A DNA stretch of 64,000 nucleotides, taken from Angustibacter luteus (GTDB lineage: Bacteria > Actinomycetota > Actinomycetes > Actinomycetales > Angustibacteraceae). Positions within the stretch are counted from its first letter, which is position 1. Each line of letters opens with the position of its first letter. Below are positions 39,013 to 61,156 of this stretch, one piece after another. Position numbers and translations under genes: made by a program. Below the pieces are notes generated by a model. That model saw only the letters and a list, made by a program, of their open reading frames with translations, did not search any database and had not been told where the DNA came from. The stretch is taken from the NCBI RefSeq assembly GCF_039541115.1, contig NZ_BAABFP010000005.1, forward strand, positions 372,001-436,000, written 5' to 3'.

Positions 39013-40461
39013 TCAGCCGGTGCGCTCGGCCAGCCCCTGCAGGGCCTGGGTGAAGCACTCCTGCGGCGGGCTGACCAGGCCGGCGCCGACCTGTCCGGTC
39101 CCCGCGACGCGCCCGGCCATGCCCGTGTTGATCACGGGCAGGATCGACGTCCGGACCACGGCGGTGACGTCGATGCCGGTCGGTGTGCCGCGGAAGCCCA
39201 GCACCGGGATCTGGTAGATCGGGTGCTCGCCCAGCGTGATGTCGTACATCCGCCGGGTAGTGGCCAGGGCGTCGTCCGCCTCGCCGCCGACGAACTTCAC
39301 GATGGCGGGCGCGGCGGCCATCGCGAACCCGCCGATGCCGCCCGTCTCGGTGATGGCCGAGTCGCCGATGTCGGGATTGGCGTCGTCGGGGCCGAAGTCG
39401 CCCAGGAACAGCCCCTGCGGGGTGTTCGCCGGGGCGGTGAACCAGTCGTCGCCGGTGCCGGAGACCTGGATGCCGAAGTCGGTGCCGTTGCGGGCCATCG
39501 CGACCACGAGGGTCGAGCCGGGGACGTCGCGACCGGCGTCCAGGGCGAGCTTGCAGGCGGGCATGACGAGGTTCAGGAAGAAGTGGTCGTTCCCGTTGCA
39601 GAACCGGACCACGTCCGCGACGTCGGACGGCGGGGCGCCCAGGTCCAGCAGCTCGGGCACCAGCTCGCGGACCAGCATCATGGTGCCGGCCCGGTTGCGG
39701 TTGTGGCCCTCGTCGCCCATCTGCAGCATCTGCGCCACGATTGCGCGGATGTCCAGCGGTCCCGCGCGCTCGACACGGCGGCGGACGGCCTGCTGCAGCA
39801 GCGGCCCGAGCACCGCGGACATCCAGCGCAGCCGGTCGATCACGTCGGGCCCGTACGCGCCGTACCGCAGCACCTTGCCGAGGCCCTCGTTCAGCGTGCA
39901 GAACGCGGTGCCGCCGTGCACCGGATCACGCAGCACGAAACCCCACTGGGACGGGGAGATGACCCCGGCCATCGGACCGACCGCCGCGTGGTGGTGGCAC
40001 GAGTCCAGTGAGATGCCTTCTCCCGAAAGAGCCTGTCCCGCAACGAGTCCAGCCTCGGCGTCGGCGGGGTCGCCGGCGAGGCCCTCGAGCACCATCGCGC
40101 CGATCAGGGCGCCGCGCAGGGGCCCGGAGGCCCGTTCGAAGTCGATGGGCGGCCCGGCGTGCAGGAACGAGCCAGGGCGCAGGCCCAGCGCCTGGGAAGC
40201 CGGGACGACGTCCACCAGCTCGGCGCCGGCCGCGAGCACCCGGGACAGTGCGGTCGCGTTCGCTGTGACGCGCCGCGGGTCGGTCAGCACGGCACCCAGC
40301 TGGGCGGGCACCTCGGCGCCGCCCAGCGGGGGCCGCCAGTCGACCCGGTGCACATCGACCGCCTGCGCGCTCAGGGCGTCGGCGAGCAGGTCGACGCCAG
40401 CGGTGACCACGGACGTCGGGGCGTCGGTCAGCAGGCCCCGCAGGTCGCTCAGGCCGGTCAC
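39013..40461 (-). CDS. DUF1116 protein (YlbE/AllG/YahG-like)
   Basis: LHAGPP, CHHHAAVGPMAG, NEGLGKVLRYGAY, MGDEGHNRN, DHFFLNL, ARNG, DIGDSAITETGG, INTGMA. Confidence 0.9.
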   Translation of the reverse strand: MTGLSDLRGLLTDAPTSVVTAGVDLLADALSAQAVDVHRVDWRPPLGGAEVPAQLGAVLTDPRRVTANATALSRVLAAGAELVDVVPASQALGLRPGSFLHAGPPIDFERASGPLRGALIGAMVLEGLAGDPADAEAGLVAGQALSGEGISLDSCHHHAAVGPMAGVISPSQWGFVLRDPVHGGTAFCTLNEGLGKVLRYGAYGPDVIDRLRWMSAVLGPLLQQAVRRRVERAGPLDIRAIVAQMLQMGDEGHNRNRAGTMMLVRELVPELLDLGAPPSDVADVVRFCNGNDHFFLNLVMPACKLALDAGRDVPGSTLVVAMARNGTDFGIQVSGTGDDWFTAPANTPQGLFLGDFGPDDANPDIGDSAITETGGIGGFAMAAAPAIVKFVGGEADDALATTRRMYDITLGEHPIYQIPVLGFRGTPTGIDVTAVVRTSILPVINTGMAGRVAGTGQVGAGLVSPPQECFTQALQGLAERTG

Positions 40462-41984
40462 GACGCCTCCTCGGGCCGGACGAGCGCCGCGGCGGCCCGG
40501 GCTGCGGCAGCGTTGGACAGGTACACGTCGGCGCCGGCCGCCGCCAGCCGCTGCGCCTGGTCGTCGCGGCCCTGCGGGTCGCCGGTCGTCCCGGTCAGCG
40601 ACACCACGACGGCAAGGGCCCGGCCGGCCGCACCGGCCGCGGCCCGGGCCGCCGCGATCGCCGGGGCCAGCTCGATCGCCGGGTCCGGGTGCGCACCGTG
40701 GCCGAGGACGACGTCCAGCAGCACGGCACCGACCCGCGGGTCGGCCGCCTCCCGGGCCAGCCGCTGGTCGCGCAGCGACGGGTCGATCATCGGGTGCGCT
40801 CGACCCTGGGTCAGCGCGTCGTCGCCGAAGTCGACCATGGCGTGGGCGGTGCCGGCGTCCCAGCGGCCGTCCCCGCGCACGTCCAGCGCGAGCTCGGTCG
40901 ACAGCGGGATGTTCGACCGGATCGGGCCCAGCCGCTCCGCGGCCACCAGCATCGCCTCGTCGCACAGGGTGCCGCCGCAGAACAGACCGCGCAGTGCGCG
41001 GCCGGGGGAGCGTGGCTGGGCGTCGGGCGCACGCCACACCGGCCACGTGACGCCGGTGACGCCGAGCCGGTCGAGCGTCGCCGTCGCCACCTCGGTGAGG
41101 TCGCGGCGTCCGGCACCCAGCGTCGCCCACTCGACGGCGACGTCCAGACCGCCGACGAGCTCCTGCAGGTCGTCCAGCACGCCCGGGTCGGCGGGCTTGC
41201 TCACCAGCACGACGAGCTCGGTCGCGTCGTCGCCGGCCAGCGCGGTCAGCGCCTGCCGGGCGGACCGTCCGCCGACCGCCGCGCTCAGGTCGCGCCCCCC
41301 GAGGCCCAGGCAGTGCCGGACGCCCACCCCGGCGTGGTCCAGCAGCGCCATCAGGTGCTGGGCGCCGGTGCCGGACGCCGCCACCAGGGAGACCGGCCCC
41401 GGCTGGACGACGTTCGCGAACCCGAGGCCCAGCCCGCCGAGCACCGCGGTCCCGCAGTCCGGGCCCATCACCAGCACGTCGTGCTCGGCGGCGGCGTCCT
41501 TCAGGGCCACCTCCTGCGGGACGCTCACGTTGTCGCTGAACACCAGGACGCTCGACCCGGCCGTGATCGCGTCCATCGCCTCAGCGACGGCGGACGGGCC
41601 GGGCACCGAGACCACGACCACCGGGGCCGGGCTGCGCCGCAGGGCGACGCCGGTGGTGCGGGCCGGTTCGAGCGTGCTGGAACCGACGGTCGACACCGCC
41701 GGAGCCAGGGCCGTGACCAGGGCCGCCAGCGCGTCCTGCACCGCGGAGTCGTCGTCCGCCCGGAGCGCGACCACCAGGTCCGCGGGCGCCGTGCCCTCGG
41801 GAACGACGAAACCCATGCCGGCGAGGACCTCGACGTTCAGCGGGGTGGCCATCGCGACCTGCGCCGCCTGGACCCCGGGCACGTCCGCCACCCTGCGGCT
41901 GACCTGCAGCAGGGTCACGGAGTCGTGGTAGGCCCCGCTGCGGACCTCGACGTGCTCGACTCGCTCCATGCCGGCAGGGCTCAT
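40458..41984 (-). CDS. fdrA: FdrA family acyl-CoA-synthetase-like protein (AllF-like)
   Basis: YHDSVTLL, MATPLN, FSDNV, MGPDCGT, ASGTG, GGRDLS, GLFCGGTLC, TQGRAHPMIDP, DVVLGHGAHPDP. Confidence 0.9.
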   Translation of the reverse strand: MSPAGMERVEHVEVRSGAYHDSVTLLQVSRRVADVPGVQAAQVAMATPLNVEVLAGMGFVVPEGTAPADLVVALRADDDSAVQDALAALVTALAPAVSTVGSSTLEPARTTGVALRRSPAPVVVVSVPGPSAVAEAMDAITAGSSVLVFSDNVSVPQEVALKDAAAEHDVLVMGPDCGTAVLGGLGLGFANVVQPGPVSLVAASGTGAQHLMALLDHAGVGVRHCLGLGGRDLSAAVGGRSARQALTALAGDDATELVVLVSKPADPGVLDDLQELVGGLDVAVEWATLGAGRRDLTEVATATLDRLGVTGVTWPVWRAPDAQPRSPGRALRGLFCGGTLCDEAMLVAAERLGPIRSNIPLSTELALDVRGDGRWDAGTAHAMVDFGDDALTQGRAHPMIDPSLRDQRLAREAADPRVGAVLLDVVLGHGAHPDPAIELAPAIAAARAAAGAAGRALAVVVSLTGTTGDPQGRDDQAQRLAAAGADVYLSNAAAARAAAALVRPEEAS

Positions 41985-42763
41985 GCGGCCAGCCTGCCCC
42001 ATCGCACGGACGCGACCAGGTCGGCGCCGGCCAGGGTGGCCGCCCCCGAGCTGGCGCCGAGCGCCCGCACGGCCGCGCGGTTCCCCTCGGTCGGCCGGTG
42101 CAGGGCCCGGACGACGACGCGCGTCGCCAACCCACCGGCGGCGTGCCGCAGCAGCTCCGCGGACAGCGGCGTCGTCCGGGCAGCGGCCGCAGCGGTGACG
42201 GCCCGGCCCACCTGGTCCAGCACCGCTGCGCCCGGACCCGGCCGGGCCTGCGCGGCCAGCAGCAGGCCGGCCACCGCGTCGTCGGCGGCCGGGGTCGATC
42301 CCGGCCCGCGGCCGAGCACACCGCACAGCAGATCGGCCGTGGCGGGCGCGTCGTGCTCGGCGAGCGCGCTGACCGCGGCTCGCAGGGCCCGCCAGGTCAC
42401 CGCGTCGAGGCCACCGGGGTCCGCCGGACGTGGCGAGGCAGGCCCTGGCTCGCGGGGGAGCACCCGGGCCGGCGACCACCAGCGGCTGACCTGCACCCAG
42501 CACGACGGGAGCTGCAGCCCGAAGCTGTTGATCATGACCTCGTCCCCGACCACGACAGCACCGGCCGCGACGACCGTGGCCAACGCGGGGGCCAGCACAG
42601 CGCAGGGCAACGACGCGGGGCCGGGATGGAGGTCCAGCACGAGGAGTCGCGGGCCGGGCAACGCCACGGAGACCGCGCCAGAGCCGACCCGCACCACCTG
42701 GCCCGTCCCGCCGCCGAACGCGTCGAGCAGGGCGGTGCTGCCCGCACCCGCCACCAAGCCCAT
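41981..42763 (-). CDS. DUF2877 protein (YlbF/AllH-like)
   Basis: LGRGPGSTPAADD, RTTPLS, GASSG motifs; ATGA-coupled to fdrA. Confidence 0.82.
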   Translation of the reverse strand: MGLVAGAGSTALLDAFGGGTGQVVRVGSGAVSVALPGPRLLVLDLHPGPASLPCAVLAPALATVVAAGAVVVGDEVMINSFGLQLPSCWVQVSRWWSPARVLPREPGPASPRPADPGGLDAVTWRALRAAVSALAEHDAPATADLLCGVLGRGPGSTPAADDAVAGLLLAAQARPGPGAAVLDQVGRAVTAAAAARTTPLSAELLRHAAGGLATRVVVRALHRPTEGNRAAVRALGASSGAATLAGADLVASVRWGRLAA

Positions 42764-42797
42764 GACGCGACGCTACCGAGCACCTAGGCTGCCCCCC

Positions 42798-44408
42798 ATG
42801 ACGAGAGTTGCCGAAGATCGCCTCATCCTCGGGTCCGGGTTGCCGAGGGACGACGAGCGACCTTCCACGTACGGCATCTCGGTCCGCGAGGCCCTCGACC
42901 TCCCGGCGCTCGCCGGGACCCAGGTGCTCGCCGGTGCCACCGGGCTCGGCCGGCACGTCCTGCGGCTCGGCGTCTGGGAGACCCCGGACGTCCTGCCGTT
43001 CACCCGCGAGGACGAGCTCCTGGTCACCACCGGGTACCCGCTGCTCGAGCGGCGCGACGAGCTGGCCGACCGGTTCGCAGAGCTCGCCGAGGCCGGCGTG
43101 GTGGCCGTCGCGGTGAAGCTCGGCGCCTACGTGGAGTCCCTGCCGGCCGACGTCCTGGAGCGGGCCGACCGCATCGGCCTGCCGGTGCTGGCGCTGCCCG
43201 CGGCGGTCTCGCTGGACGACGTGCTCAACCAGGTGCTCAGCGCGGTCCTCGGCCGCCAGGCCGCCCTGCTCGCCCGCAGCGAGGAGATCCACCGCGCCCT
43301 CGTCCAGGTCGTCCTGGGCGGCGGAGGACTGCCCGAGGTGGCCAACGCCATCGCCGACGGACTCGGGCTGTCGGTCCTGGTGACCAGCCCGACCGGTCAG
43401 GTCCTGGCCGAGGCCGGCCCGCCGACGTCCGCCGACCAGTCCGACGACCAGGTCGAGGTCCCGATCGTGGCGGGCGGGATGTCGCACGGCACCGTCGTGG
43501 CGCTGTCCCGCAGTGGGCCCATCGACCCCCCGGACGTGCACGCCCTGGAGCGCGCCGCCGTCGTCTGCGCCCTCGTCGCCGTCAAGCAGCAGGCCGTCAG
43601 CGCCGTCGAGGAGCGCTACCAGGCGGACTTCCTGCGCGACGTCCTGCTCGGCCGGTTCGACGACAGCGAAGCCGCGGTCCGGCACGGCGCGTCGCTCGGC
43701 TGGCAGCTGGACCGCCCGCTCGTCGTGGTGACGGCCCAGCCGGACAGCGACCCGCGACCGGGCGCGGCACGCGAGCCGGTCACCGACCGGATGGCCAGCG
43801 CCTGGCGCGCGCACCTGCGGACCCGGGACCCGCGGGCGGCCGTGTGCGGGTTCGCCTCCGAGGTGGTCGCCCTCGTCGGAGCGCCCGGGGACGGCGACGT
43901 CGAGCGGCTCGTCCGCGACCTGACGGCGGCCGTCCGCGAGCCGGGTGCGGCCAGCGGAGGGCGGCGCGGGTTCACCGTGGGCGTGAGCCGGGTGGTGACC
44001 GGGATCGCCGGTCTGGCCGTGGCGTACGAGCAGTCGCGCACCTGCGTCCGGGTCTCCCGGCAGGTGCACGGACCCGGTGGAGTCGCGCACTTCGACCGGC
44101 TCGGGGTGCACCGGCTGCTCAGCCTGGTGCCCGACAGCCACGAGCTGCGCACCTTCCTCGACGAGACGCTGAAGGAGCTGGCGAAGCCGACCGCCGAGGC
44201 GCGGGACCTGCGGCGCACCCTGGAGGCGCTGCTGGACACCAACCTGAACGTCGCCGAGACCGCCCGCCGGCTGCACTTCCACTACAACACGCTGCGCTAC
44301 CGGATCGGCAAGCTCGAGCGCATCCTCGGACCGTTCACCGAGGACGCCGACCTGCGGCTGGACCTGGCCCTGGCGCTGCGCATCATGCCGATGCGCGGAC
44401 TCGGCTGA
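42798..44408 (+). CDS. PucR/CdaR-family transcriptional regulator
   Basis: N-terminal PucR domain (VLAGATGL, ELLVTTG); C-terminal HTH TARRLHFHYNTLRYRI. Confidence 0.93.
   Translation: MTRVAEDRLILGSGLPRDDERPSTYGISVREALDLPALAGTQVLAGATGLGRHVLRLGVWETPDVLPFTREDELLVTTGYPLLERRDELADRFAELAEAGVVAVAVKLGAYVESLPADVLERADRIGLPVLALPAAVSLDDVLNQVLSAVLGRQAALLARSEEIHRALVQVVLGGGGLPEVANAIADGLGLSVLVTSPTGQVLAEAGPPTSADQSDDQVEVPIVAGGMSHGTVVALSRSGPIDPPDVHALERAAVVCALVAVKQQAVSAVEERYQADFLRDVLLGRFDDSEAAVRHGASLGWQLDRPLVVVTAQPDSDPRPGAAREPVTDRMASAWRAHLRTRDPRAAVCGFASEVVALVGAPGDGDVERLVRDLTAAVREPGAASGGRRGFTVGVSRVVTGIAGLAVAYEQSRTCVRVSRQVHGPGGVAHFDRLGVHRLLSLVPDSHELRTFLDETLKELAKPTAEARDLRRTLEALLDTNLNVAETARRLHFHYNTLRYRIGKLERILGPFTEDADLRLDLALALRIMPMRGLG
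42799..42814 (-). promoter_or_regulatory. Putative regulon operator, copy 1 (-51..-36 of the DUF2877 start)
   Basis: TCGGCAACTCTCGTCA, 23 nt upstream of TAGCGT -10. Confidence 0.6.
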
Positions 44409-44466
44409 CCGATCGTTCGGCGCCGCCTCCCACGCCTGGACCTCACCTCGCGCCATGCTGACCCCA

Positions 44467-44482
44467 CGTGACGCGGGTCACA
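44467..44482. promoter_or_regulatory. CRP/GlxR-like site upstream of the permease
   Basis: CGTGA-cgcggg-TCACA versus consensus TGTGA-N6-TCACA. Confidence 0.5.
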
Positions 44483-44522
44483 CGGCTCGCGTCGTCCGGT
44501 CAAGGGCCGAGAGGACACGCGC

Positions 44523-45983
44523 ATGGCGATCGGATGGACTCTGCACGGCGACGGCAAGACGCTCGCCCCCGGTGAGGTCGTCGCTCCGAACGAACGGTTG
44601 TCGTGGGGCCGGACCGTAGGCCTGGGCGCCCAGCACGTCGTCGCCATGTTCGGCGCGACGTTCGTCTTCCCGCTGATCATGGGACTCAACCCCCAGCTCG
44701 CGATCCTGATGAGCGGCGTCGCGACGATCTGCTTCCTGCTCATCGTGAACGGCAAGGTGCCCAGCTACCTGGGCACGTCGGCGTCGTTCGTCGGCGGCGT
44801 CGCCGCGATCCGCGCCCAGGGCGGGAACTCGGCGCAGGTCACCGGCTCGATCCTGGTGGCGGGCGCGGTCCTGGCCCTGGTCGGCGTGATCATCCACTTC
44901 GCGGGTTCCCGGGTCATCTACAAGGTCCTGCCGCCGGCGGTGACCGGCGCCGTCGTCATGCTCATCGGCTTCAACCTGGCGCCCGTCGTGGCCCAGATCT
45001 ACTGGCCGCAGGACCAGTGGATCGGGCTGATCGTGATGACGGCGGTGATCGCGATGAGCGTCGGTCTGCGCGGGTTCGCCGGGCGCATCTCGATCTTCCT
45101 CGGCCTGGTGCTCGGCTTCGTGCTGTCCTGGCTGTTCGACAAGGGCTTCGGGCAGATCACGTCCTACGACGCGAGCGCCGGCAAGGTGACCACGCACTGG
45201 CGGGTGAACCTGGACACCGTCGTGTCGTCGAACACGCACTGGTTCGGCTTCCCGCCCAAGTCGGACACGGCGGCCGGCATCGTGGGCTACCACCTGCCCG
45301 AGTTCAAGTGGGCGTTCGTGCTCCTGGTCCTTCCGGCGGTCATCGCCCTGATCGCCGAGAACACGGGGCACGTCAAGGCGGTGGCCGAGATGACCCGGAC
45401 GGACCTGGACCCGGTGATGGGCCGCGCCATCGCCGCCGACGGCTTCGGCACCGTCCTCGCCAGCGCGGTCGGCGGCAGCCCGACGACCACCTACGCAGAG
45501 AACATCGGCGTCATGGCGGCGACCCGGGTCTACTCGACGGCTGCGTACTTCGTAGCGGCGGCGGTCGCGATCCTGTTCGGCTTCTCCCCGAAGTTCGGCG
45601 CCCTGGTCTCGGCGACGCCCGGCGGTGTGCTCGGCGGGATCACCGTCGTGCTCTACGGGATGATCGGCCTGCTCGGCGCCAAGATCTGGAAGGAGAACAA
45701 CGTCGACTTCGGGAACCCGATCAACCTGGTCCCGATCGCCGCGGGCATCATCATCGCCATCGGTGACGTGAGCCTGAAGATCACCGACTCGTTCACCCTG
45801 TCGGGCATCGCGTTCGGCACGATCGTCACGATCCTCGCCTACCACATGGCCCACGCGCTGGCCCCCGCTCATCTCCGGGAGGCCGCCGACCACGGCCAGT
45901 CGATCGACGAGGGCCCGTCGCTGGTGCTGAACGACCCGGGCATGTACGTGGAGGGCGATGACGACGGACGTCACCGCGGGTGA
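44523..45983 (+). CDS. NCS2 uracil/xanthine permease (UraA/RutG-like)
   Basis: QHVVAMFGAT, PSYLGTSASF, ENTGH, TTTYAENIGV (UraA-type signature). Confidence 0.92.
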   Translation: MAIGWTLHGDGKTLAPGEVVAPNERLSWGRTVGLGAQHVVAMFGATFVFPLIMGLNPQLAILMSGVATICFLLIVNGKVPSYLGTSASFVGGVAAIRAQGGNSAQVTGSILVAGAVLALVGVIIHFAGSRVIYKVLPPAVTGAVVMLIGFNLAPVVAQIYWPQDQWIGLIVMTAVIAMSVGLRGFAGRISIFLGLVLGFVLSWLFDKGFGQITSYDASAGKVTTHWRVNLDTVVSSNTHWFGFPPKSDTAAGIVGYHLPEFKWAFVLLVLPAVIALIAENTGHVKAVAEMTRTDLDPVMGRAIAADGFGTVLASAVGGSPTTTYAENIGVMAATRVYSTAAYFVAAAVAILFGFSPKFGALVSATPGGVLGGITVVLYGMIGLLGAKIWKENNVDFGNPINLVPIAAGIIIAIGDVSLKITDSFTLSGIAFGTIVTILAYHMAHALAPAHLREAADHGQSIDEGPSLVLNDPGMYVEGDDDGRHRG

Positions 45984-45999
45984 TCGGCAACTCCTGACG
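45984..45999 (+). promoter_or_regulatory. Putative regulon operator, copy 2 (-51..-36 of the FAD subunit start)
   Basis: TCGGCAACTCCTGACG, 23 nt upstream of CAAGAT -10. Confidence 0.6.
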
Positions 46000-46034
46000 A
46001 CGCAGCCCGCTGGTTCACAGGGCAAGATCGGCCC

Positions 46035-46886
46035 ATGAAGCCCGCGCCGTTCACCTACCACCGGCCGGCCGGCCTGGACGAGGCGCTGGACGTCCTCGAC
46101 CAGGTCGGCTCGGACGGCAAGGTGCTGGCTGGTGGGCAGAGCCTGCTGCCGCTGCTGTCCATGCGGCTGGCCGCGCCCGCGCACCTGGTGGACGTCAACC
46201 ACCTGCCCGGGCTGGACGTCGTCGAGGTCACGGCGGACGTCGTCCGCTGTGGTGCGCTGGTGCGGCACACCGACCTGCTGCGCCACCCCGCTGCCTTCGA
46301 CGCCCAGCCGCTGCTGCGGCGGGCGCTGCAGCACGTGGCGCACCCCACCATCCGCAACCGCGGCACGACCGTGGGCAGCATCTGCCACGCCGACCCGGCG
46401 GCCGAGATGCCGGCGGTGACCCTGCTCCTGGGCGGAACGCTGGTGGTGCGCTCACGGCGCGGCGAGCGGCGGATCGCGGCAGCGGACCTGTTCGCCGGGC
46501 CGTTGGAGACGACGCTGGCCACGGACGAGCTCGCGGTGGCCGTCGAGTGGCCGGTGACGGCGCCGAGGGAGAGCACCGCGATCGTCGAGGTCTCGCGCCG
46601 GCACGGCGACTACGCCGTGTGCGGTGTCGCGGCGCAGGTCCGGGTCGACGAGGACGGCACCGTGCGGGCAGCGCGCGCGGTCTACGTCTCGATGGGACTG
46701 ACCCCGCCGGTGCTCGACCTGACCGGAGCCGTTGCGGGGCAACACGTCGAGCGCGCGGACTGGGCCGGGGCCGCGGCGCTGGCCACCGAGCAGCTGGAGC
46801 CCGAGGCGGACATCCACGCCAGCGCCGACTACCGGCGTCACCTGGCCGGTGTGCTGACCCGGCGCGCGTTCGAGGAAGCAGGGTGA
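46035..46886 (+). CDS. Molybdenum hydroxylase FAD-binding subunit (CoxM/XdhB-like)
   Basis: MKPAPFTYHRP, LAGGQSL, IRNRGTTVGS..HADPAAE, RRHGDYA. Confidence 0.93.
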   Translation: MKPAPFTYHRPAGLDEALDVLDQVGSDGKVLAGGQSLLPLLSMRLAAPAHLVDVNHLPGLDVVEVTADVVRCGALVRHTDLLRHPAAFDAQPLLRRALQHVAHPTIRNRGTTVGSICHADPAAEMPAVTLLLGGTLVVRSRRGERRIAAADLFAGPLETTLATDELAVAVEWPVTAPRESTAIVEVSRRHGDYAVCGVAAQVRVDEDGTVRAARAVYVSMGLTPPVLDLTGAVAGQHVERADWAGAAALATEQLEPEADIHASADYRRHLAGVLTRRAFEEAG

Positions 46887-46893
46887 TCCGGCC

Positions 46894-47399
<506 letters not shown>

Positions 47400-47403
<4 letters not shown>

Positions 47404-49847: not shown

Positions 49848-50464
49848 AGGTCAACGGATCCGCCGTCCTGCACGCCGAGCGGCAGCGGGTCTACGACGCG
49901 CTCAACGACCCGGCGGTACTCGGCGGGGCGATCCCGGGCTGCCAGTCGCTGGTCGCCCTGGGGGAGGACCGCTACCGGATGAGCGTGACCGCAGGGGTGG
50001 CGTCCATCAAGGGCACCTACGACGGTGAGGTGCAGCTCAGCGACCAGCGGGCCCCGGGGTCGTTCACCATGCGTGCCAAGGGATCCGGCGCTCCCGGCAC
50101 CGTGGACGCGACCTGCCGGGTGACCCTCACCGAGGGGGACGACGGCACGACCACGCTCGAGTACGACGCGGACGCGGTGGTCGGCGGCGTGGTCGGGGGA
50201 GTGGGTCAGCGGATGCTGACCGGCGTCGCGAAGAAGATGGCCGGTCAGTTCTTCGGCAACGTGGACGACGTGCTGACCGGCCGAAGGCCGGCGGTGACCA
50301 CGGAAGCGGCGAGCGAAGCGAGCCGGCCCCTCGCCGGCACGACGCGGCCTGCCCCGGCAGGCCCCGCCCAGTCCCGCACCTCACCCCTGGCCGCCGCGCT
50401 CGTCGGCGCGGCGATCGCGCTGGCCGGCGTCGCCCTCGGCTGGGCGATCGCCCGGGGGCGTTGA
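49844..50464 (+). CDS. CoxG/SRPBCC protein with C-terminal membrane anchor
   Basis: LNDPAVL..AIPGC, GGVGQRM, terminal hydrophobic helix. Confidence 0.88.
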   Translation: MKVNGSAVLHAERQRVYDALNDPAVLGGAIPGCQSLVALGEDRYRMSVTAGVASIKGTYDGEVQLSDQRAPGSFTMRAKGSGAPGTVDATCRVTLTEGDDGTTTLEYDADAVVGGVVGGVGQRMLTGVAKKMAGQFFGNVDDVLTGRRPAVTTEAASEASRPLAGTTRPAPAGPAQSRTSPLAAALVGAAIALAGVALGWAIARGR

Positions 50465-50465
50465 G

Positions 50466-53497: not shown

Positions 53498-55443
53498 GCG
53501 GCATGCGGCAGCACCCGTTCGGCTACCGGCTCACCGAGGTCCCGGCGTCCGACGTCGACCCCGTTCTGGTCGAGATCGTCGAGGGCTACCTGGCCAGCGT
53601 CGAGATGGAGGTCGAGACCGCCATCGCGCGGACCTCTCGCTCACCCATGATCAGGGACGCGCACGACTTCCGGGCCGGCATCCACGACCGGCACCTGCGC
53701 AAGCTCACCGGACGCTCGTACTCGGCCCTCGTGCACCCGATCGCCCGGGACTTTCCGCCGGAGACGATGCGGCCCGGCGACGTGTTCTTCCACAACGACG
53801 TCTACGAGTCCGAGGGCGGGATCGGGCACCTGCCGGACCTGTGCGTGACCGTGCCGGTGTTCGCCGCCGACGCCGCCGGCGAGCCGTCCGTCGTGGCCTT
53901 CGTGCAGGCCTTCGGGCACCACGACGACATCGGCGGTGCGGTGCCGGGTTCCATGCCGTCCAACGCCACCAGCGTGTTCGCCGAGGGTCTGATGGTGCCG
54001 CCGATCCGGTTGTGGGACGCGGGGGTGCCGAACGCGGCGGCGCTGCGGATCATGACCCGGAACTCGCGGATGCCCGAGTCGCTGGCCGCGGACCTGGACG
54101 CCGAGTGCAGCGCCTGCCTGATGGGGGCCCGGCGGCTGGGCGAGCTGTTCGACCGGTACGGCGTGGACACGGTCGAGGCGACGTTCGACGCGATCCTGGA
54201 CAACACCACGGCGACGTACCGGCGCGAGATCCTGTCCAAGATCCCGGTGGGGCAGTACGTGTGGGAGGACTACGCCGAGCACGACGGCGTGGAGGAGCCC
54301 AGGCTGCACACCCAGCGCATCACGCTGACCCGCACGGCCGCCGACGACCCGGACGGCGAGCGGCTGGTCATCGACTTCACCGGGACCGGACCGCAGGCCC
54401 GCGGACCCATCAACCACTGCGGCGACTACGCCGAGGGCACCTTCCTGAAGAAGTGGCTCGCGCCGATCCTGCGCAACCTGGCCGACTCCCCGCAGCGGAT
54501 GGCCGAGCTCGACGTCAACGAGGGGGTCGTCCCGCTGATCGAGATGCGCTTCCCGGAACCTGGGACGCTGCTGACGCCGATCTTCCCGGCGCCCACCAAC
54601 GCGCGCACCTTCGTCATCCTGCGGCTGCTCGGTGTCCTGGCCGGGGTCGTCGCCAAGGCGGTGGACGGCCAGATGCCCGCCGACCAGGAGACGATCCGCT
54701 ACACCGGCGTCTACGGCGATGACCTCGAGGGCAATCCCTACCTGATGCGCGAGGTGCTGGGTGGCGGGTCCGGTGGGCGGCCGCACGGCGACGGGGAGGA
54801 CACCATCCACGTCGTCCCGGACAGCCGCAACCTGCCGACCGAGTTCACCGAGAGCCGGTTCCCGTTCCGGGTCGAGTCGCTGGGGCTGGCCGTCGACTCC
54901 GGCGGGGCCGGCCTGCACCGGGGCGGGCTCGGTTACGACAAGCAGATCCGGATGCTGCGCGACGGGCACTTCATGTCCATCGCGGACCGCTCGATCCTGG
55001 CCTGCTGGGGAGTGCGCGGCGGCCAGGCCGGTCAGCCCTTCTCCGTGACGGTGGACGTCGGGGGCCCCAACGAGCGCGAGGTGGACGCCCTGGCCGATGC
55101 CGAGCCGGTGCAGGCGGGGGAGCTGATCCGGATCCGGACGACGGGCGGTGGCGGTTGGGGTGACCCGCTGGAGCGGGCCGCGGCGGACGTCGTCCGCGAC
55201 GTGCGCTGGGGCAAGGTGTCCATCGCGGGCGCCGCCCGTGACTACGGCGTGGTGCTCACCGGATCCGCGGACGACCCCGAGCTCGACGCGGCAGGCACTC
55301 AAGCGATGCGGCAGCAGCGCCGGCAGGCGCGACCGGCCGAGGCGCCGTTCTTCGACCGCGGGCCCGGCTACGCACGGCTCAGCGGCGGCGCGACGAGCGC
55401 CGAGGTGGACTGGGTGGAGCCGGCTGAGCCCTCTGACGGCTAG
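53494..55443 (+). CDS. Hydantoinase B / 5-oxoprolinase family subunit
   Basis: GHLPD, GHHDDIGGAVPGS, EGL..PP, DSGGAG..RGGLG, TGGGGWGDP. Confidence 0.93.
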   Translation: MSGMRQHPFGYRLTEVPASDVDPVLVEIVEGYLASVEMEVETAIARTSRSPMIRDAHDFRAGIHDRHLRKLTGRSYSALVHPIARDFPPETMRPGDVFFHNDVYESEGGIGHLPDLCVTVPVFAADAAGEPSVVAFVQAFGHHDDIGGAVPGSMPSNATSVFAEGLMVPPIRLWDAGVPNAAALRIMTRNSRMPESLAADLDAECSACLMGARRLGELFDRYGVDTVEATFDAILDNTTATYRREILSKIPVGQYVWEDYAEHDGVEEPRLHTQRITLTRTAADDPDGERLVIDFTGTGPQARGPINHCGDYAEGTFLKKWLAPILRNLADSPQRMAELDVNEGVVPLIEMRFPEPGTLLTPIFPAPTNARTFVILRLLGVLAGVVAKAVDGQMPADQETIRYTGVYGDDLEGNPYLMREVLGGGSGGRPHGDGEDTIHVVPDSRNLPTEFTESRFPFRVESLGLAVDSGGAGLHRGGLGYDKQIRMLRDGHFMSIADRSILACWGVRGGQAGQPFSVTVDVGGPNEREVDALADAEPVQAGELIRIRTTGGGGWGDPLERAAADVVRDVRWGKVSIAGAARDYGVVLTGSADDPELDAAGTQAMRQQRRQARPAEAPFFDRGPGYARLSGGATSAEVDWVEPAEPSDG

Positions 55444-56291
55444 GCGTACTGCTTCACGAACCCCAGGGCGGTGTCGGCCACCTCGCGCCAACCGCTGTCG
55501 ATGGTCAGCGCGTGGCCGCGGTTCGCGATCTCGACGAACTCGGTGACGCCCTCGTTGCGCTTCTGCTTCTTGAAGGCGGCGTTCGAGATCGCGTGCGGGA
55601 CGGTGTGGTCCTGCTCGCCGCCGATGATCAGCAGGGGGCCGCGGTCGGGGTTCTTGCTCTTGACCTTGGCCTGGGTCCAGGGGTTGAGGTTCGCGCTGGC
55701 GGCCTGGAACAGGGGTGCGCCGGGGGCGGGGACGGCGAACGCGTCGTACAGCTCCTTCGCCTCGTCCTCGCTGACCGCGTTCGCGAAGGCGTACCGGAAC
55801 TGCTCGTAGGTGAGCGGGACGGCACGGTGCTTGTTGGCGGGGTTGGTCAGCACGGGGCTGGAGGCACGCAGCGCCGAGATGGGCAGCGGCAGCACGCCAC
55901 GGAACGGGGCCGGCGAGATGGACACGGTGGCCGCGGACAGGCCGCGCCCGGCGACCATCTGGGCCAGCAGGCCGCCGAACGAGTGCCCCACGACGGCGGG
56001 CTTCTGCTCCAGCAGCGCGATCACGGCCGCGTAGTGGTCGGCGACCTGCCCGACGGTCTTGTTCGCGAACACCTCGGGGTGCGCGTTGGCCTCCTCGACG
56101 GTCTCCGGGTCGTCCGGCCAGCCGGGGCTGACGGCGGCGTAGCCGGCCTCCTCGAACACGGCGGCCCAGCGGTCCCAGCTGCTGGGCAGCAGCCAGAGCC
56201 CGTGGATGAAGACGACGGGACGGCGGCCGGCGGCGTTGGCGGCCTCGACCTGGTCGAGGGTGGACTGCGGGATCAAGGACTCCGTGGCCAT
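55440..56291 (-). CDS. Alpha/beta hydrolase
   Basis: FIHGLW, GHSFGG nucleophile elbow, DHTVP, RGH. Confidence 0.9.
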   Translation of the reverse strand: MATESLIPQSTLDQVEAANAAGRRPVVFIHGLWLLPSSWDRWAAVFEEAGYAAVSPGWPDDPETVEEANAHPEVFANKTVGQVADHYAAVIALLEQKPAVVGHSFGGLLAQMVAGRGLSAATVSISPAPFRGVLPLPISALRASSPVLTNPANKHRAVPLTYEQFRYAFANAVSEDEAKELYDAFAVPAPGAPLFQAASANLNPWTQAKVKSKNPDRGPLLIIGGEQDHTVPHAISNAAFKKQKRNEGVTEFVEIANRGHALTIDSGWREVADTALGFVKQYA

Positions 56292-56432
56292 GCGAGCGCT
56301 CCCAGGGATTGGTGGGCCGAGCAGCACGTGCGGTCCATAGGGACGCTATCGGCGCGTGCGGACCCTGTGAAGATCATGTGCGGCAGCGTCTCACCGACCG
56401 GTACGCACGGGCTCACCCGTGATGATGGGGTG

Positions 56433-57179
56433 GTGCCGTTCACCGTCTCCCACGTCGTCGCCGTCCTGCCGCTGCGACGTGTGCCGTGGCTGCCGACCTC
56501 CGCGCTCGTGATCGGGTCGATGGCGCCGGACAGCCCGTCGATGGTCGGGGCGTTGCGGTGGCGCGACAGCACGCACACGTTGGCAGGCGCCATGACGACC
56601 GACGTGGCCATCACGGCCGTCGGCTGCGTGCTCTGGGCCTGGGTGCTGCGGCCCGTGGTGGCCGACCTCGTGCCTGCCCTCGCGGCGCGGTGGCGGCCTT
56701 CGGTGCAGCCGCGCCGACCGCTCGTCGTGCAAGGACTGCTCTGGTACCTGGCCGCGGCGATCGGCTGCCTCACCCACGTCGTGTGGGACGCCTTCACCCA
56801 CCCTGGTGGCGCGGAGGGCGGTTGGATCCCGCTGGACGGCGTGAACGCGCACACCTACGCGCAGCTGCAGCTGCTGTCCAGCGTGCTGGGAATCGTGATC
56901 CTGGCGTGGTGGACGGCGCGTTGGTGGCGTGCCCACCCGCCGATCGCCCACTCCGAGCCCGGCACCCCCGCCGTCCGGCACCGGCGCAGCGCCGTGGCCC
57001 TGGTCGTGGTGGCCGCCGGCGCGCTCTGGGCAGCGACGGACCGGGCGCTGACCGGCGGACGGGCCGGGCAGCAGGTCCTGGTCGACCTCGGGTTCGGCGC
57101 CCTGGCCGGGGCGCTGGTCGGTGCGCTCCTCGTCGCGGTCGTGTACCGGTTGACGCTGTTGCGCGGCCGCTCGACCTAG
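56433..57179 (+). CDS. DUF4184 family membrane protein
   Basis: MPFTVSH...GSMAPD...THVVWDAFTH. Confidence 0.85.
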   Translation: MPFTVSHVVAVLPLRRVPWLPTSALVIGSMAPDSPSMVGALRWRDSTHTLAGAMTTDVAITAVGCVLWAWVLRPVVADLVPALAARWRPSVQPRRPLVVQGLLWYLAAAIGCLTHVVWDAFTHPGGAEGGWIPLDGVNAHTYAQLQLLSSVLGIVILAWWTARWWRAHPPIAHSEPGTPAVRHRRSAVALVVVAAGALWAATDRALTGGRAGQQVLVDLGFGALAGALVGALLVAVVYRLTLLRGRST

Positions 57180-57745
57180 AGCGTGCCGGTGTCGAGCAGG
57201 ACGTCGGCCTGTCCGGCGGTGCCCTCGCGCGCGAAGTGCGCGTCCTCCTGGTCGGCCCACTGCCGCCAGTGCGGCCGGTAGCTCTCGCCGTCGCGGTCGA
57301 TGGCACGCCGGAACCTCACGTCCTCGGGCGCCTGCACCCAGACCAGCACCGACAGGAACGGCCGGCAGACCGCTGCGCCCGCCCCGCACCCCTCCACCAC
57401 CATCGTCGCGGCGCAGGGAATCTGGTAGGCCTCGCCGTCGGACTCAGTGACCCAGTCGTAGCGGCGCAAGGTCGCCGAGTCGCCCATCGACACTGGTCGC
57501 AGCACGCCGTCGACGAGCCGGGTGACGCCGTCCTCCAGGCCGTCCCAGCCCGGGTAGACGTCGTCCAGCCGGACGACCGGGGCGTCGTCCAACGCTGCGC
57601 CCAGGCGCCGGGCGAACGACGACTTGCCCGCGCCGCTGCGCCCGTCCACGGCGATCACCCGCGTCGGACCGGTGCGGGCCGGCGCCCCTGGGAGCAGGGC
57701 CAGGACGGCCGCGATCGCCGGCTCGACATCCGTGGCGCGCAGCAT
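57176..57745 (-). CDS. P-loop kinase (uridine kinase-like / AAA)
   Basis: IAVDGRSGAGKS, DDVYPGW, RRYDW, VVEG. Confidence 0.8.
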   Translation of the reverse strand: MLRATDVEPAIAAVLALLPGAPARTGPTRVIAVDGRSGAGKSSFARRLGAALDDAPVVRLDDVYPGWDGLEDGVTRLVDGVLRPVSMGDSATLRRYDWVTESDGEAYQIPCAATMVVEGCGAGAAVCRPFLSVLVWVQAPEDVRFRRAIDRDGESYRPHWRQWADQEDAHFAREGTAGQADVLLDTGTL

Positions 57746-57779
57746 CGGGACACTGTGCCACGCGCACTACGCTCGCCCG

Positions 57780-58988
57780 ATGGAATCCACGCCGCCCGCA
57801 GGGCCTCTGGCCGGGCTCGTCGTCGTCGACCTCACCCGAGCGCTGGCCGGACCGCACGCGGCGATGATGCTGGGCGACCTCGGCGCCCGTGTCATCAAGG
57901 TCGAGTCGCCGGGGCACGGTGACGACACCCGCGGGTGGGGACCGCCCTTCGTCACCGGGCCCGATGCCGGGACCGACCCAGCGGCTGAGCGGCAGTCGAC
58001 GTACTTCCTGTCCTGCAACCGGAACAAGGAGTCCCTGGCGCTCGACCTGAAGTCCGACGACGGCCGGGACACGCTGACCGCGCTCGTCCAGCGGGCCGAC
58101 GTGCTGTTGGAGAACTTCCGGACCGGCGTGCTGGATCGGCTCGGGTTCAGCACCGAGCGGCTGCTCGAGCTCAACCCTCGCCTGGTCGTGCTGTCCATCA
58201 GCGGCTTCGGCCACGACGGCCCGGAGGGTGGCCGGGCCGGCTACGACCAGATCGCGCAGGGCGAGGCGGGCCTGATGTCCCTGACCGGCGCCGGGCCGGA
58301 CGACCCGCAGCGGGTGGGGGTCCCGATCGGGGACCTCCTCGCCGGCATGTGGGGCGGCTACGGAGTGCTGGCCGCGCTGCTGGAGCGCGAGCGCACAGGG
58401 CTCGGCCAGGTCGTCCGGACGTCGTTGCTGGCCGGCATCATCGGCGTGCACGCCTTCCAGGGGACCCGGTACACCGTCGCCGGCGAGGTCGGCCGGGCGG
58501 CCGGGAACCACCACCCCTCGATCTGCCCGTACGGCCTGTTCCACTGCCGGGACGGGGCGGTGCAGATCTCGGTCGGCAGCGAGGGCCTGTGGCGGCGGCT
58601 CTGCGCGGAGTTCGGCCTCGACCCGACCGCAGCGGGCATGGCGAGCAACCCGGAGCGGGTGCACCATCGCGAGGCAGTCATCGCCGCCATCGAGGCCGCC
58701 TTCACTGACCTGGACGCCGACCCGCTGCTCGCTCGGCTGGCCGCGGCGGGCATCCCGGCCGGGCGGGTGCGCACGCTGGACGAGGTGTACGCCTGGGACC
58801 AAACCCGCAGCCAAGGGCTGCTGGTCGATGTCGAGCACCCCACCCTGGGCGCGCTGACCCTGCCCGGCCCGCCGCTGCGGTTCTTCGCCGCCGACGGCGA
58901 GGAGACGACCAAACGCCAGCACGCGGCGCCGCCCCTGCTCGACGCCGACGCCGAGTCGGTGCGCGCCTGGCTGGTGAGCGAATCCTGA
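57780..58988 (+). CDS. Class III CoA-transferase (CaiB/BaiF)
   Basis: AGPHAAMMLGDLGARVIKVE, NRNKES, ENFR, ISGFG, GYD. Confidence 0.93.
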   Translation: MESTPPAGPLAGLVVVDLTRALAGPHAAMMLGDLGARVIKVESPGHGDDTRGWGPPFVTGPDAGTDPAAERQSTYFLSCNRNKESLALDLKSDDGRDTLTALVQRADVLLENFRTGVLDRLGFSTERLLELNPRLVVLSISGFGHDGPEGGRAGYDQIAQGEAGLMSLTGAGPDDPQRVGVPIGDLLAGMWGGYGVLAALLERERTGLGQVVRTSLLAGIIGVHAFQGTRYTVAGEVGRAAGNHHPSICPYGLFHCRDGAVQISVGSEGLWRRLCAEFGLDPTAAGMASNPERVHHREAVIAAIEAAFTDLDADPLLARLAAAGIPAGRVRTLDEVYAWDQTRSQGLLVDVEHPTLGALTLPGPPLRFFAADGEETTKRQHAAPPLLDADAESVRAWLVSES

Positions 58989-59007
58989 CCAAACAACGGC
59001 ACGGCGC

Positions 59008-59023
59008 TGGCGAGTGCTCGCCA
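59008..59023 (+). promoter_or_regulatory. Putative regulon operator, copy 3 (-51..-36 of the carbamate kinase start)
   Basis: TGGCGAG-tg-CTCGCCA palindrome, 23 nt upstream of TAGGTT -10. Confidence 0.55.
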
Positions 59024-59058
59024 TGACGGGCGCCGCCGGGCTCGCCTAGGTTCACGGT

Positions 59059-60012
59059 GTGCGAGTACTCGTCGCCCTGGGTGGCAACGCGATGACCGCC
59101 GCGGACGGCTCGGCCAGCCCGCAGGCGCAGATCGAGGCCGTCCGCGAGGCCATGGAGCCGGTGGCCGACCTGGTCGCCAGCGGTCACGAGGTCGTCCTCA
59201 CCCACGGCAACGGGCCGCAGGTGGGCAACCTGCTGGTGAAGAACGAGCTCGCCGCGGCCGTGGTGCCGCCGGTCCCGCTGGACTGGTGCGGCGCCCAGAC
59301 CCAGGCAACGATCGGCTTCGTCGTCCTCAACGCCCTGGAGGTGGCGTTGCGACGGCGCGGCTTGCGACGACCCGCGGCTGCCCTGGTGACGCGCACGCGC
59401 GTCGACGGTGCCGACCCCGGCTTCACGACCCCGACCAAGCCGATCGGCCGCTACCTGACCGTCGACGAGGCACAGGTGCTGGTCGGTCACGGCCAGACCT
59501 GGCAGGACCGCGGTGAGCGTGGCTGGCGGCGCGTCGTCGCCTCCCCGGAGCCGCTGGAGATCCTGGACGCCGAACCGGCCCGTGCCCTCGTCGACTCCGG
59601 CTACGTGGTGGTGGCCGGCGGCGGCGGTGGCATCCCGTGCATCGTCGAGCCCGACGGCTCGATCCGCGGAGTCGAGGCCGTCATCGACAAGGACCTCTCG
59701 GCGGCGCTCCTCGGCCGCGCCCTTCAGGTTGATGTGCTGGTGATCGCCACCGACGTCGAGGCGGTCGCCACCGGATTCGGGTCGCCGAACCAGAGGTCGC
59801 TCGGTGCGGTCGACGTCGCCGAGCTGCGGGCGCTGGCCGAGGCGGGGGAGTTCGCCAGTGGCTCCATGGGCCCGAAGGTCGAGGCGGTCTGCCGGTTCGT
59901 CGAGTCGGGCGGCTCCCGGGCCGCCATCTGCAACCTGCACCAGATCGCCGCCGCCGCTGCGGGCGAGGCGGGAACCGTCGTCCAGCCAACTGCCGCAACC
60001 AGCGAGGAGTAG
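59059..60012 (+). CDS. arcC: Carbamate kinase
   Basis: [50 protein letters not shown]. Confidence 0.96.
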
Positions 60013-60016
60013 CTCC

Positions 60017-61156
60017 ATGCCGCAGGCCATCGAGGTCCGCAAGGTGCCCATCGGTTCCGTGAGCGACGCGAGCGGGCTCGCTGAGCTGATCGACGCCGGG
60101 GTGATGGACGCCGACCGCGTCGTCGCCGTCATCGGGAAGACCGAGGGCAACGGTGGGGTCAACGACTACACCAGGATCATCGCCGACCGGGCCTTCCGCG
60201 AGGTGCTCGTGGACAAGGGCACCCGCTCGGCGGACGAGGTGAGCCAGGTGCCCATCGTCTGGTCGGGCGGGACGGACGGCGTGATCAGTCCGCACGCCAC
60301 AGTGTTCGCCACGGTGCCGGACGGCGAGCAGGTGCAGACCGACGAGCCCCGGCTCACCGTCGGCTTCGCGATGAGCGAGGTGCTGGCCCCGGAGGACATC
60401 GGCCGGGTGGCCATGGTCAGCAAGGTGGCGGACGCCGTCCGCATCGCGATGCAGCGGGCGGGCATCACCGATGTCGCGGACGTGCACTACGTGCAGACCA
60501 AGACGCCGCTGCTGACCATCCACACCATCCGCGACGCGAAGTCTCGCGGCGAGAGCGTGTGGACCGAGCACACCCACGAGTCGATGGACCTGTCCAACGG
60601 CTGCACGGCGCTCGGCATCGCGGTGGCCCTGGGGGAGATCGAGATGCCCACCGACGCCGACGTCATGCACGACCGGTCGCTGTACTCGTCCGTGGCCTCG
60701 TGCTCCTCGGGCGTCGAGCTGGACCAGGCCCAGGTCGTCGTCGTGGGCAATGCCCGCGGAGTGGGTGGGCGCTACCGCATCGGCCACTCGGTCATGCGGG
60801 ACGCGCTGGACGCCGACGGCATCTGGTCGGCCATCAAGGACGCCGGGCTCGAGCTCCCCGAGCGGGCGCACCACAGCGACCTGGACGGCCGGCTGGTCAA
60901 CGTGTTCCTCAAGTGCGAGGTCTCCCAGGACGGCGTGGTGCGCGGGCGCCGCAACGCCATGCTGGACGACTCGGACGTGCACTGGCACCGCCAGATCAAG
61001 TCGTGCGTCGGCGGGGTCACGGCCGCGGTGACCGGTGACCCGGCTGTCTTCGTGTCGGTCTCGGCGGCGCACCAGGGCCCGGACGGTGGCGGCCCCGTCG
61101 CGGCCATCGTCGACCTGGGAGACGAGCCCACCGGCTACCGGCCACCGACCCTGTAG
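60017..61156 (+). CDS. bar: Barbiturase (AtzD/barbiturase ring-opening amidohydrolase family)
   Basis: [48 protein letters not shown]; barbiturase-type signatures, very like the Rhodococcus enzyme as I recall it. Confidence 0.92.

Follow-up and report, generated by a model that had tools for sequence, protein, structure and literature searches.

What becomes of the product of barbiturase in an actinomycete whose genome yields no match to urease? The question is raised by a 64-kb stretch of Angustibacter luteus DNA (G000:C5:372001-436000; hereafter the window, within which island positions are counted) that contains an island of catabolic genes encoding a molybdenum (Mo) hydroxylase, a barbiturase (Bar), a carbamate kinase (ArcC), and a trio of AllFGH-type proteins (AllH, AllF, and AllG). 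The same barbiturase acts in the classical oxidative pyrimidine pathway, which is described as ending with hydrolysis to urea and malonate (Soong et al. 2001, 2002, as cited in PMC3758960 and PMC4051656). The best reading of the island, which genomic context puts at a probability of about 0.58, is a different ending, in which phosphorolysis of ureidomalonate would give malonamate and carbamoyl phosphate, and carbamoyl phosphate would then be used to make ATP. The initial annotation of this DNA had linked the Mo hydroxylase, barbiturase, the trio, and carbamate kinase into one pathway; that link is strongly supported by conserved synteny, near-perfect co-occurrence, and the lack of a urease or allantoin route in the genome.

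The island is proposed to be an oxidative pyrimidine regulon, for uracil and perhaps thymine, under the control of a PucR-type regulator. A permease of the NCS2 family would import the base, and the three-subunit Mo hydroxylase, together with a CoxG-family protein, would hydroxylate C6 to give barbiturate, the ring of which barbiturase would open to yield ureidomalonate, an N-acylurea. The barbiturase-linked AllH-AllF-AllG would move the carbamoyl group to phosphate, releasing malonamate and carbamoyl phosphate; carbamate kinase would convert the latter to ATP, NH3, and CO2; an amidase encoded in one slot of the operon (a CN-hydrolase in the window) would free the second NH3 from malonamate; and a CoA-transferase would activate malonate. 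The chief benefit is probably that both nitrogens are recovered as ammonia with no need of urease, one ATP being gained in addition. The substrates given for the steps past barbiturase, and uracil as the substrate of the Mo hydroxylase, are predictions. The transfer step is modelled on E. coli AllFGH, which acts on oxalurate, a compound one carbon shorter than ureidomalonate; the purified E. coli AllF-AllG-AllH is described as interconverting oxalurate plus inorganic phosphate with oxamate plus carbamoyl phosphate (Kim & Kim 2024, PMC11326118).

The genes of the island are as follows.

39013-40461, minus strand: AllG (DUF1116/YlbE-type); PF06545, 317 bits
40458-41984, minus strand: AllF (FdrA-type, succinyl-CoA-synthetase-alpha-like); PF00549; NCBIfam FdrA subfamily model, 366.6 bits, cut-off 433
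41981-42763, minus strand: AllH (DUF2877/YlbF-type), first gene of the H-F-G operon; PF11392, 56.5 bits
42798-44408, plus strand: PucR-family regulator, ATG at 42798; PF07905, PF17853, PF13556
44523-45983, plus strand: NCS2 nucleobase permease (RutG/UraA-like); PF00860, 248 bits
46035-46886, plus strand: Mo hydroxylase FAD subunit; PF00941, PF03450
46894-47403, plus strand: Mo hydroxylase 2Fe-2S (FeS) subunit; PF01799, PF00111
47400-49847, plus strand: Mo hydroxylase large (molybdopterin) subunit; PF01315, PF02738, PF20256; NF040766, 1473.7 bits
49844-50464, plus strand: CoxG-family protein; PF06240
50466-51404, plus strand: CN-hydrolase (nitrilase superfamily), in the amidase slot; PF00795, 158.5 bits
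51401-53497, plus strand: HyuA, hydantoinase/oxoprolinase A subunit; PF05378, PF01968, PF19278
53494-55443, plus strand: HyuB, hydantoinase/oxoprolinase B subunit; PF02538, 448.9 bits
57780-58988, plus strand: family III CoA-transferase; PF02515, 383.9 bits
59059-60012, plus strand: carbamate kinase (ArcC/AllK type); NF009007, TIGR00746
60017-61156, plus strand: barbiturase; PF09663, 476.4 bits, profile positions 1-358

Coding frames were chosen by third-position G+C and then scanned with Pfam and NCBIfam models, and start codons and gene junctions were taken directly from the sequence. Profile scans and sequence inspection place every gene named in the initial annotation where that annotation had put it; the span also holds genes it did not list, namely PucR, the CN-hydrolase, HyuA and HyuB, the CoA-transferase, and, in a variable insert, an alpha/beta hydrolase, a DUF4184 protein, and a P-loop kinase. 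The trio had been called coupled, and it is so translationally: AllH and AllF overlap by ATGA and AllF and AllG by GTGA, with the AllG GTG start at 40461 preceded by GAGGAGG and overlapping the AllF stop. PucR is divergent from AllH, with a 34-nt spacer between the two starts. The spacing of 4 nt reported between carbamate kinase and barbiturase is likewise exact, the kinase ending at 60012 and the barbiturase ATG lying at 60017.

Neighbours of barbiturase were sought by tblastn over 10 kb on each side of the gene in one genome per species, giving 80 loci (barbiturase 83-92% identity) that span several actinomycete orders and include Nocardioidaceae, Intrasporangiaceae, Cryptosporangium, Pseudonocardia, Nakamurella, and Jiangellales. 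Carbamate kinase is directly upstream of barbiturase at 70 of these loci, and five of the ten loci without it have less than 500 bases of upstream sequence. Within the 10 kb, HyuB was found at 50 loci, HyuA at 40, and the CoA-transferase at 34; AllF, AllG, and AllH were found at none of the 80. A search of the whole genomes behind 50 of these loci recovered AllG in every one: it is on the barbiturase contig in 45 and within 50 kb of barbiturase in 44, at distances of 11-49 kb with a median of 25 kb; 43 have it upstream of barbiturase and on the other strand, the arrangement seen in the window. The common order in nine islands retrieved over their whole length is AllG, AllF, AllH / PucR, permease, FAD, FeS, Mo, CoxG, slot gene, HyuA, HyuB, ArcC, Bar. 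By Pfam, AllH is upstream of AllF in all nine, as it is in the more divergent cluster of genome G196 considered below; PucR occupies the same position in eight of the nine, and CoxG follows the Mo large subunit in eight of the nine, all fully covered.

The extent of the association was measured in an even sample of 401 Actinomycetes genomes from 174 genera, using thresholds of at least 68% identity for the barbiturase clade, at least 60% for the linked AllG clade, and at least 69% for the Mo large subunit. Barbiturase and the linked AllG each occur in 91 genomes; 88 genomes have both, three have barbiturase only (G087, G410, and G419), three have AllG only (G086, G226, and G445, all less than 85% complete), and 307 have neither, a link that is far beyond chance, even as the kinship of the sampled genomes makes the counts overstate independence. 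Five of the genomes with both genes are flagged as unpublished (G353, G085, G422, G073, and G056); their removal leaves 83 of 396. Orthologues of the Mo large subunit occur in 87 of the 401 genomes, 84 of which have barbiturase; the three that do not are all incomplete, and one of them, G064, is flagged as unpublished. Barbiturase, AllG, and the Mo large subunit are found together in 82 of the 401. AllG is absent from six genomes that have only cyanuric-acid-hydrolase-like homologues (37-43% identity) of barbiturase. The initial annotation had named the co-occurrence of barbiturase, DUF1116, and ArcC as a check on its proposal, and both the sample counts for barbiturase and DUF1116 and the adjacency of ArcC to barbiturase come out in favour of a functional link.

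That annotation had also recognized no urease, ureidomalonase, or allantoin-pathway gene in the window. This holds, and for the urease and allantoin routes the searches were extended to the whole source genome (4.16 Mb, 73% G+C, 100% complete by marker genes), in which urease alpha, uricase, and OHCU decarboxylase gave no match each. The best score there for the AllC model is 175.6 bits (cut-off 597.75), that for the allantoinase model is 238.9 bits (cut-off 357.85; window 6191-7450, inside a row of pyr genes), and Ldh_2/AllD is represented by a 38.9-bit fragment only. The amidase-signature family has a single member in the genome, on another contig (531 bits), which is presumably gatA. In the 50 related barbiturase genomes, many of which are metagenome-assembled genomes of unknown completeness, urease alpha was found in just 12, paralleling the occurrence of AllFGH among enterics in urease-negative species (PMC11326118).

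The trio and the kinase were compared with the allFGHK region of E. coli K-12, which is experimentally characterized. By BLASTP, AllG is 47% identical to YlbE/AllG (E 1e-124), AllF is 37% identical to FdrA/AllF (E 2e-75), and AllH is 37% identical over 105 amino acids to YlbF/AllH (E 3e-10); the AllFGH subunit set (FdrA-type, DUF1116, and DUF2877) is complete, with the NCBIfam FdrA model scoring below its cut-off. A tree of 15 rows groups the ten barbiturase-linked AllG sequences in a clade of their own (support 100/99) that excludes E. coli AllG and four actinomycete paralogues taken from other contexts, and this suggests, as far as a tree can, a substrate different from that of E. coli AllG. 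Two of these paralogues are beside glutamine-synthetase-like genes (G182), one is with nitrile hydratase, ComA, and AIR-synthase-like genes (G137), and the fourth, in G097 (51% identity, outside the barbiturase-linked clade), belongs to an isochorismatase-AllF-AllG-amino-acid-kinase cassette.

The carbamate kinase scores above the cut-off of NF009007 (304.6 bits, cut-off 266) and below that of the TIGR00746 equivalog (342.9 bits, cut-off 358.25), is 41% identical to E. coli YbcF/AllK, and is the sole copy in the source genome. Barbiturase is also present there in single copy. Searched against all PDB sequences, its residues 1-368 match best to 5HWE, annotated 'Barbiturase' (E 1.6e-203, 678.9 bits), with cyanuric acid hydrolases at E 1.4e-94 or weaker. 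The protein also matches TIGR02714 (593.9 bits), and it passes the NCBIfam AtzD equivalog model (474.5 bits, cut-off 360), so that this model cannot separate barbiturase from cyanuric acid hydrolase. At position +32 from a conserved Lys, the window barbiturase and 5HWE have Asn and the hydrolases 5T13 and 6BUM have Arg. The second substrate-binding Arg (Arg188 of the Azorhizobium cyanuric acid hydrolase) is described as replaced in the barbiturase subgroup by Gln (PMC4051656), whereas the replacement residue seen here is Asn. The AtzD-family gene at 60017-61156 is, to judge by these matches, a member of the barbiturase subgroup, closer to barbiturase than to the cyanuric acid hydrolases.

The Mo hydroxylase is complete in its FAD, 2Fe-2S, and molybdopterin subunits. 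The large subunit exceeds the NF040766 cut-off of 950 bits, and NCBIfam names this model 'CODH_aero_grp5', an aerobic carbon monoxide dehydrogenase (CODH) large subunit. On inspection of its sequence, the large subunit lacks the tripeptide AY[RG], with which we take the active-site loop motif of CODH to begin, and the CODH name is probably wrong for this clade. Its co-occurrence with barbiturase makes the enzyme a candidate uracil/thymine dehydrogenase, and the three conserved genes a candidate set for the dehydrogenase that precedes barbiturase in the classical pathway; to our knowledge, no sequence-defined family exists and no sequence has been assigned for uracil/thymine dehydrogenase. For the permease the best NCBIfam models, TIGR03616 RutG and uracil permease, score 331 and 248.7 bits, each short of its cut-off. 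A shared PucR operator was also considered: the 10-mer GAGTTGCCGA is repeated, in reverse complement, in the spacer between AllH and PucR and in that between the permease and the Mo hydroxylase, and the idea was dropped because its 8-mer core occurs dispersed within coding sequence, both of the window and of each of the nine islands.

Which of these genes form the core of the system is indicated by a divergent architecture in G196 (C2:244000-272000; L115/L116), where about 13 kb hold AllH-AllF-AllG-x-ArcC divergent from permease-x-Bar-FAD-FeS-Mo, the x between AllG and ArcC being a 150-amino-acid protein with no Pfam match. The copies are distant from those of the window (barbiturase 71% identity, AllG about 58-60%), and the Mo hydroxylase is of another lineage, 29% identical to that of the window. 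HyuAB and the amidase were not found in the G196 cluster. This layout suggests a core of Mo hydroxylase, barbiturase, AllHFG, and ArcC, to which HyuAB and the amidase would be accessory. The G196 permease is split over two frames.

The nearest solved structure to the CN-hydrolase of the window is the Nit2 omega-amidase (E 2.3e-28). Substrates of Nit2 are monoamides of dicarboxylates, the chemical class to which malonamate belongs, and the CN-hydrolase is on these grounds a candidate malonamidase. Its best NCBIfam model is aliphatic amidase (104.6 bits, far under the cut-off of 427), and its relatives include N-carbamoyl amidohydrolases. The same slot, between CoxG and HyuA, holds an amidase-signature enzyme in all four of the compact islands checked (G045, G047, G007, and G023), which looks like non-orthologous displacement within one operon position. 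The slot genes of this second kind are at L083:13965-15359, L085:15120-16622, L097:15330-17060, and L090:14930-16705. PDB neighbours of the amidase-signature slot enzyme are urethanases, GatA, aryl acylamidase, and AtzE, with malonamidase E2 only at about 1e-22; as an arbiter between malonamidase and ureidomalonase, the PDB neighbours of both kinds of slot amidase left the matter unsettled.

HyuA and HyuB match their families over the full length, as the A and B subunits of an ATP-dependent hydantoinase/oxoprolinase. The nearest PDB entry to HyuA is the N-methylhydantoinase 7HK5 (E 1.2e-137), and the NCBIfam caprolactamase models score below their cut-offs. The operon HyuA-HyuB-ArcC-Bar is kept in most relatives, with HyuB directly upstream of ArcC in the compact islands. 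Speculatively, HyuAB may open a further cyclic ureide, for instance the 5-methylbarbiturate that would arise from thymine. The best NCBIfam models for the CoA-transferase, a candidate for malonate activation, are those of succinate-glutarate and oxalate CoA-transferases, none of which reaches its cut-off.

Depending on what the slot amidase does, the island could follow the classical route after all. The amidase could be a malonamidase, or it could be the urea-forming ureidomalonase, in which case hydrolysis to malonate plus urea, or NH3 and CO2, would be the main path and AllHFG with ArcC would serve another ureide, such as a 5-substituted barbiturate or hydantoin opened by HyuAB. In favour of this, an amidase occupies a conserved slot and HyuAB, which resembles a cyclic-ureide hydrolase, is conserved beside ArcC-Bar, and the scheme agrees with the N-carbamoyl amidohydrolases among the CN-hydrolase relatives and with the products given in the literature (PMC3758960). 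It is nonetheless unlikely: urease was not found in the source genome nor in 38 of 50 relatives, ArcC is tied to barbiturase both here and at most loci scanned, and G196 keeps Bar, the Mo hydroxylase, AllHFG, and ArcC with neither HyuAB nor an amidase in the cluster. A shade less likely again is that the substrate of AllHFG is not ureidomalonate itself but a compound derived from it, for example acetylurea formed by decarboxylation, which would give acetamide and carbamoyl phosphate, the slot enzyme then being an aliphatic amidase. The best model of the CN-hydrolase is indeed aliphatic amidase, if far below cut-off, and the compact islands have no malonate-specific gene, the CoA-transferase itself being near barbiturase at fewer than half of the loci; against this, profile scans recognized no decarboxylase in the island, and Nit2, the closest solved relative of the CN-hydrolase, acts on dicarboxylate monoamides, among which malonamate is counted.

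The doubt may instead concern the start of the pathway. The island substrate might not be uracil, with the Mo hydroxylase and the barbiturase-clade enzyme working on some other natural or xenobiotic heterocycle under the same carbamoyl-phosphate logic; the Mo hydroxylase has no characterized orthologue and carries a CODH group 5 name, the permease scores under the RutG and UraA cut-offs, and G196 uses a Mo hydroxylase of another lineage. Such a substrate is improbable, given that barbiturase matches the solved 5HWE near-identically over its full length and that the top models for the permease are pyrimidine carriers. Oxidation of uracil to barbiturate is, moreover, a trait classically associated with actinomycetes. 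Last, the trio could simply belong to purine or allantoin catabolism, as an oxamate carbamoyltransferase of the usual oxalurate-specific kind whose genes happen to be near a pyrimidine locus. Membership of the AllFGH family would allow this, and purine catabolism, too, has PucR-type regulators and Mo hydroxylases; with uricase and OHCU decarboxylase missing and AllC, allantoinase, and AllD sub-threshold in a complete genome, and with an AllG clade that the tree separates from E. coli AllG and that follows barbiturase almost without exception, it is very improbable indeed.

Ureidomalonate phosphorolysis, the preferred reading, has several points to its own discredit. The evidence for it is genomic context throughout, in genomes whose kinship was noted above, and the ending described for the classical route is urea plus malonate by way of ureidomalonase (PMC3758960, PMC4051656), a role still open to the slot amidase. 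The kinetics reported for E. coli AllFGH used carbamoyl phosphate and oxamate, with a KM for oxamate of 36.9 mM (PMC11326118). HyuAB, conserved in the operon and a relative of ATP-hydrolysing N-methylhydantoinase, has no role in the scheme or in any described pyrimidine pathway; if the main path runs through it, the ATP that it uses offsets the ATP made, and the route is ATP-neutral, not ATP-yielding. The 12 relatives with urease alpha count on the same side, as does G419, a 100% complete genome that has barbiturase and the Mo orthologue and neither AllG nor an adjacent ArcC. An arginine-deiminase-family gene on another contig of the source genome (G000:C4:297568-298665; PF02274, 378 bits) could also feed the sole carbamate kinase.

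In G419 the flanks of barbiturase (G419:C19; L110/L111) contain a glutamine-synthetase-like gene, a P450, and a second Mo hydroxylase.

The closest known system is AllFGH-AllK of E. coli. The two have the same subunit families, are tightly coupled operons, and occur in urease-negative organisms, and the same chemistry is predicted here, an N-acylurea plus phosphate giving an amide plus carbamoyl phosphate and then ATP. They differ in gene order, which is H-F-G in the window and F-G-H in E. coli, and in the predicted substrate, ureidomalonate being one CH2 longer than oxalurate. In E. coli allK is described as following allFGH in the same operon (PMC11326118), whereas ArcC of the window is 16 kb from the trio, on the other strand, and beside barbiturase; it nevertheless shares a conserved island with the trio, and in G196 it is part of the trio cluster. 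The allantoin context that supplies oxalurate in E. coli (allECD, with allB, allC, allE, and allD) is lacking in the source genome.

From the classical pyrimidine pathway, as described in PMC3758960 and PMC4051656, the proposed route departs after barbiturase, with phosphorolysis to malonamate and carbamoyl phosphate in place of hydrolysis to urea and malonate, in a genome that has no urease and whose sole amidase-signature gene is on another contig. A second parallel is found in nitrifiers: in comammox Nitrospira and ammonia-oxidizing archaea allFGHK is described beside the biuret/triuret hydrolase genes biuH/trtA (PMC12625717), so that there too an AllFGH-type module and a carbamate kinase adjoin enzymes that make small ureides. 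The partner in those organisms is BiuH/TrtA instead of barbiturase, and the AllG clade differs as well; the cassette of G097 recalls this co-location. Modules of the ornithine transcarbamylase (OTC) fold, such as arginine/agmatine deiminase systems and YgeW-YqeA of reductive urate degradation, are described with the same logic of carbamoyl group to phosphate to ADP (bioRxiv 10.1101/2025.05.19.654654; PMC3282769); their transcarbamylase fold is unrelated, and their substrates are N-carbamoyl amines, not N-acylureas.

The AllFGH-AllK module is thus known, and what would be new is the predicted substrate and the predicted ending of the oxidative pyrimidine pathway. A full-text literature search, with subscription journals and supplements outside its scope, found no paper linking barbiturase with AllFGH or carbamate kinase. 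If the proposal is true, the textbook pathway gains a second and probably commoner ending, in which carbamoyl phosphate leads to ATP and two ammonia instead of urea, and the use of uracil nitrogen by urease-negative actinomycetes is accounted for; the AllFGH family acquires another substrate besides oxalurate and, more generally, the function of N-acylurea phosphorylases; and uracil/thymine dehydrogenase gains candidate genes, with a likely misnomer, the NCBIfam CO dehydrogenase name of the large subunit, corrected. A wider reading, which joins all of these parts and is correspondingly tentative, with the balance tilting against its holding as a whole, is that about one fifth of the sampled Actinomycetes have a complete and hitherto undescribed urease-independent oxidative pyrimidine pathway in which 'CODH group 5' is the uracil/thymine dehydrogenase, the AllHFG clade is a ureidomalonate (malonamate) carbamoyltransferase yielding ATP via carbamate kinase, and HyuAB is an ATP-driven opener of a second cyclic ureide such as 5-methylbarbiturate; AllFGH-type proteins would then form a module for N-acylurea phosphorolysis in general, individual clades of which would have been recruited for oxalurate, biuret-type, and barbiturate-derived ureides.

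Some further observations concern AllG and its paralogues. The N terminus of AllG in the window is about 60 residues longer than that of E. coli YlbE. The extension was considered as a counterpart of the C-terminal tail of E. coli FdrA, to which it aligns at the right position; this sole alignment (28% over 39 residues, E 0.67) is not significant, and the idea was rejected. The two DUF1116 paralogues of G182 (L102:8841-11831 and L103:8965-11711; 44% and 38% identity) each directly adjoin their glutamine-synthetase-like gene, and one is also near a C26 gamma-glutamyl hydrolase and a cytosine/purine permease. AllF was not seen in the scanned flanks of either, which suggests that DUF1116 may act outside the AllF-AllG pairing.

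The remaining features of the island are the variable insert between HyuB and the CoA-transferase and the gene that follows barbiturase.

55440-56327, minus strand: alpha/beta hydrolase, part of the variable insert
56331-57179, plus strand: DUF4184 protein (Zn-PLC-like), part of the variable insert, detected by frame plot only
57176-57745, minus strand: P-loop kinase of the PRK06547 type, part of the variable insert
61260-62030: hisF, right after the island

A homologue of the P-loop kinase was found near barbiturase at 15 of the 80 loci. To the left of about 36 kb the window holds housekeeping genes (aroB, efp, nusB, pyr genes, coaBC, metK, priA, fmt, rsmB, rpe, ribD, hisE, and hisG). A MobA-like nucleotidyltransferase (PF12804) is encoded at 33999-34598, about 12 kb upstream of the Mo hydroxylase, and from its family it may be a cytidylyl- or guanylyl-transferase that matures the Mo cofactor.

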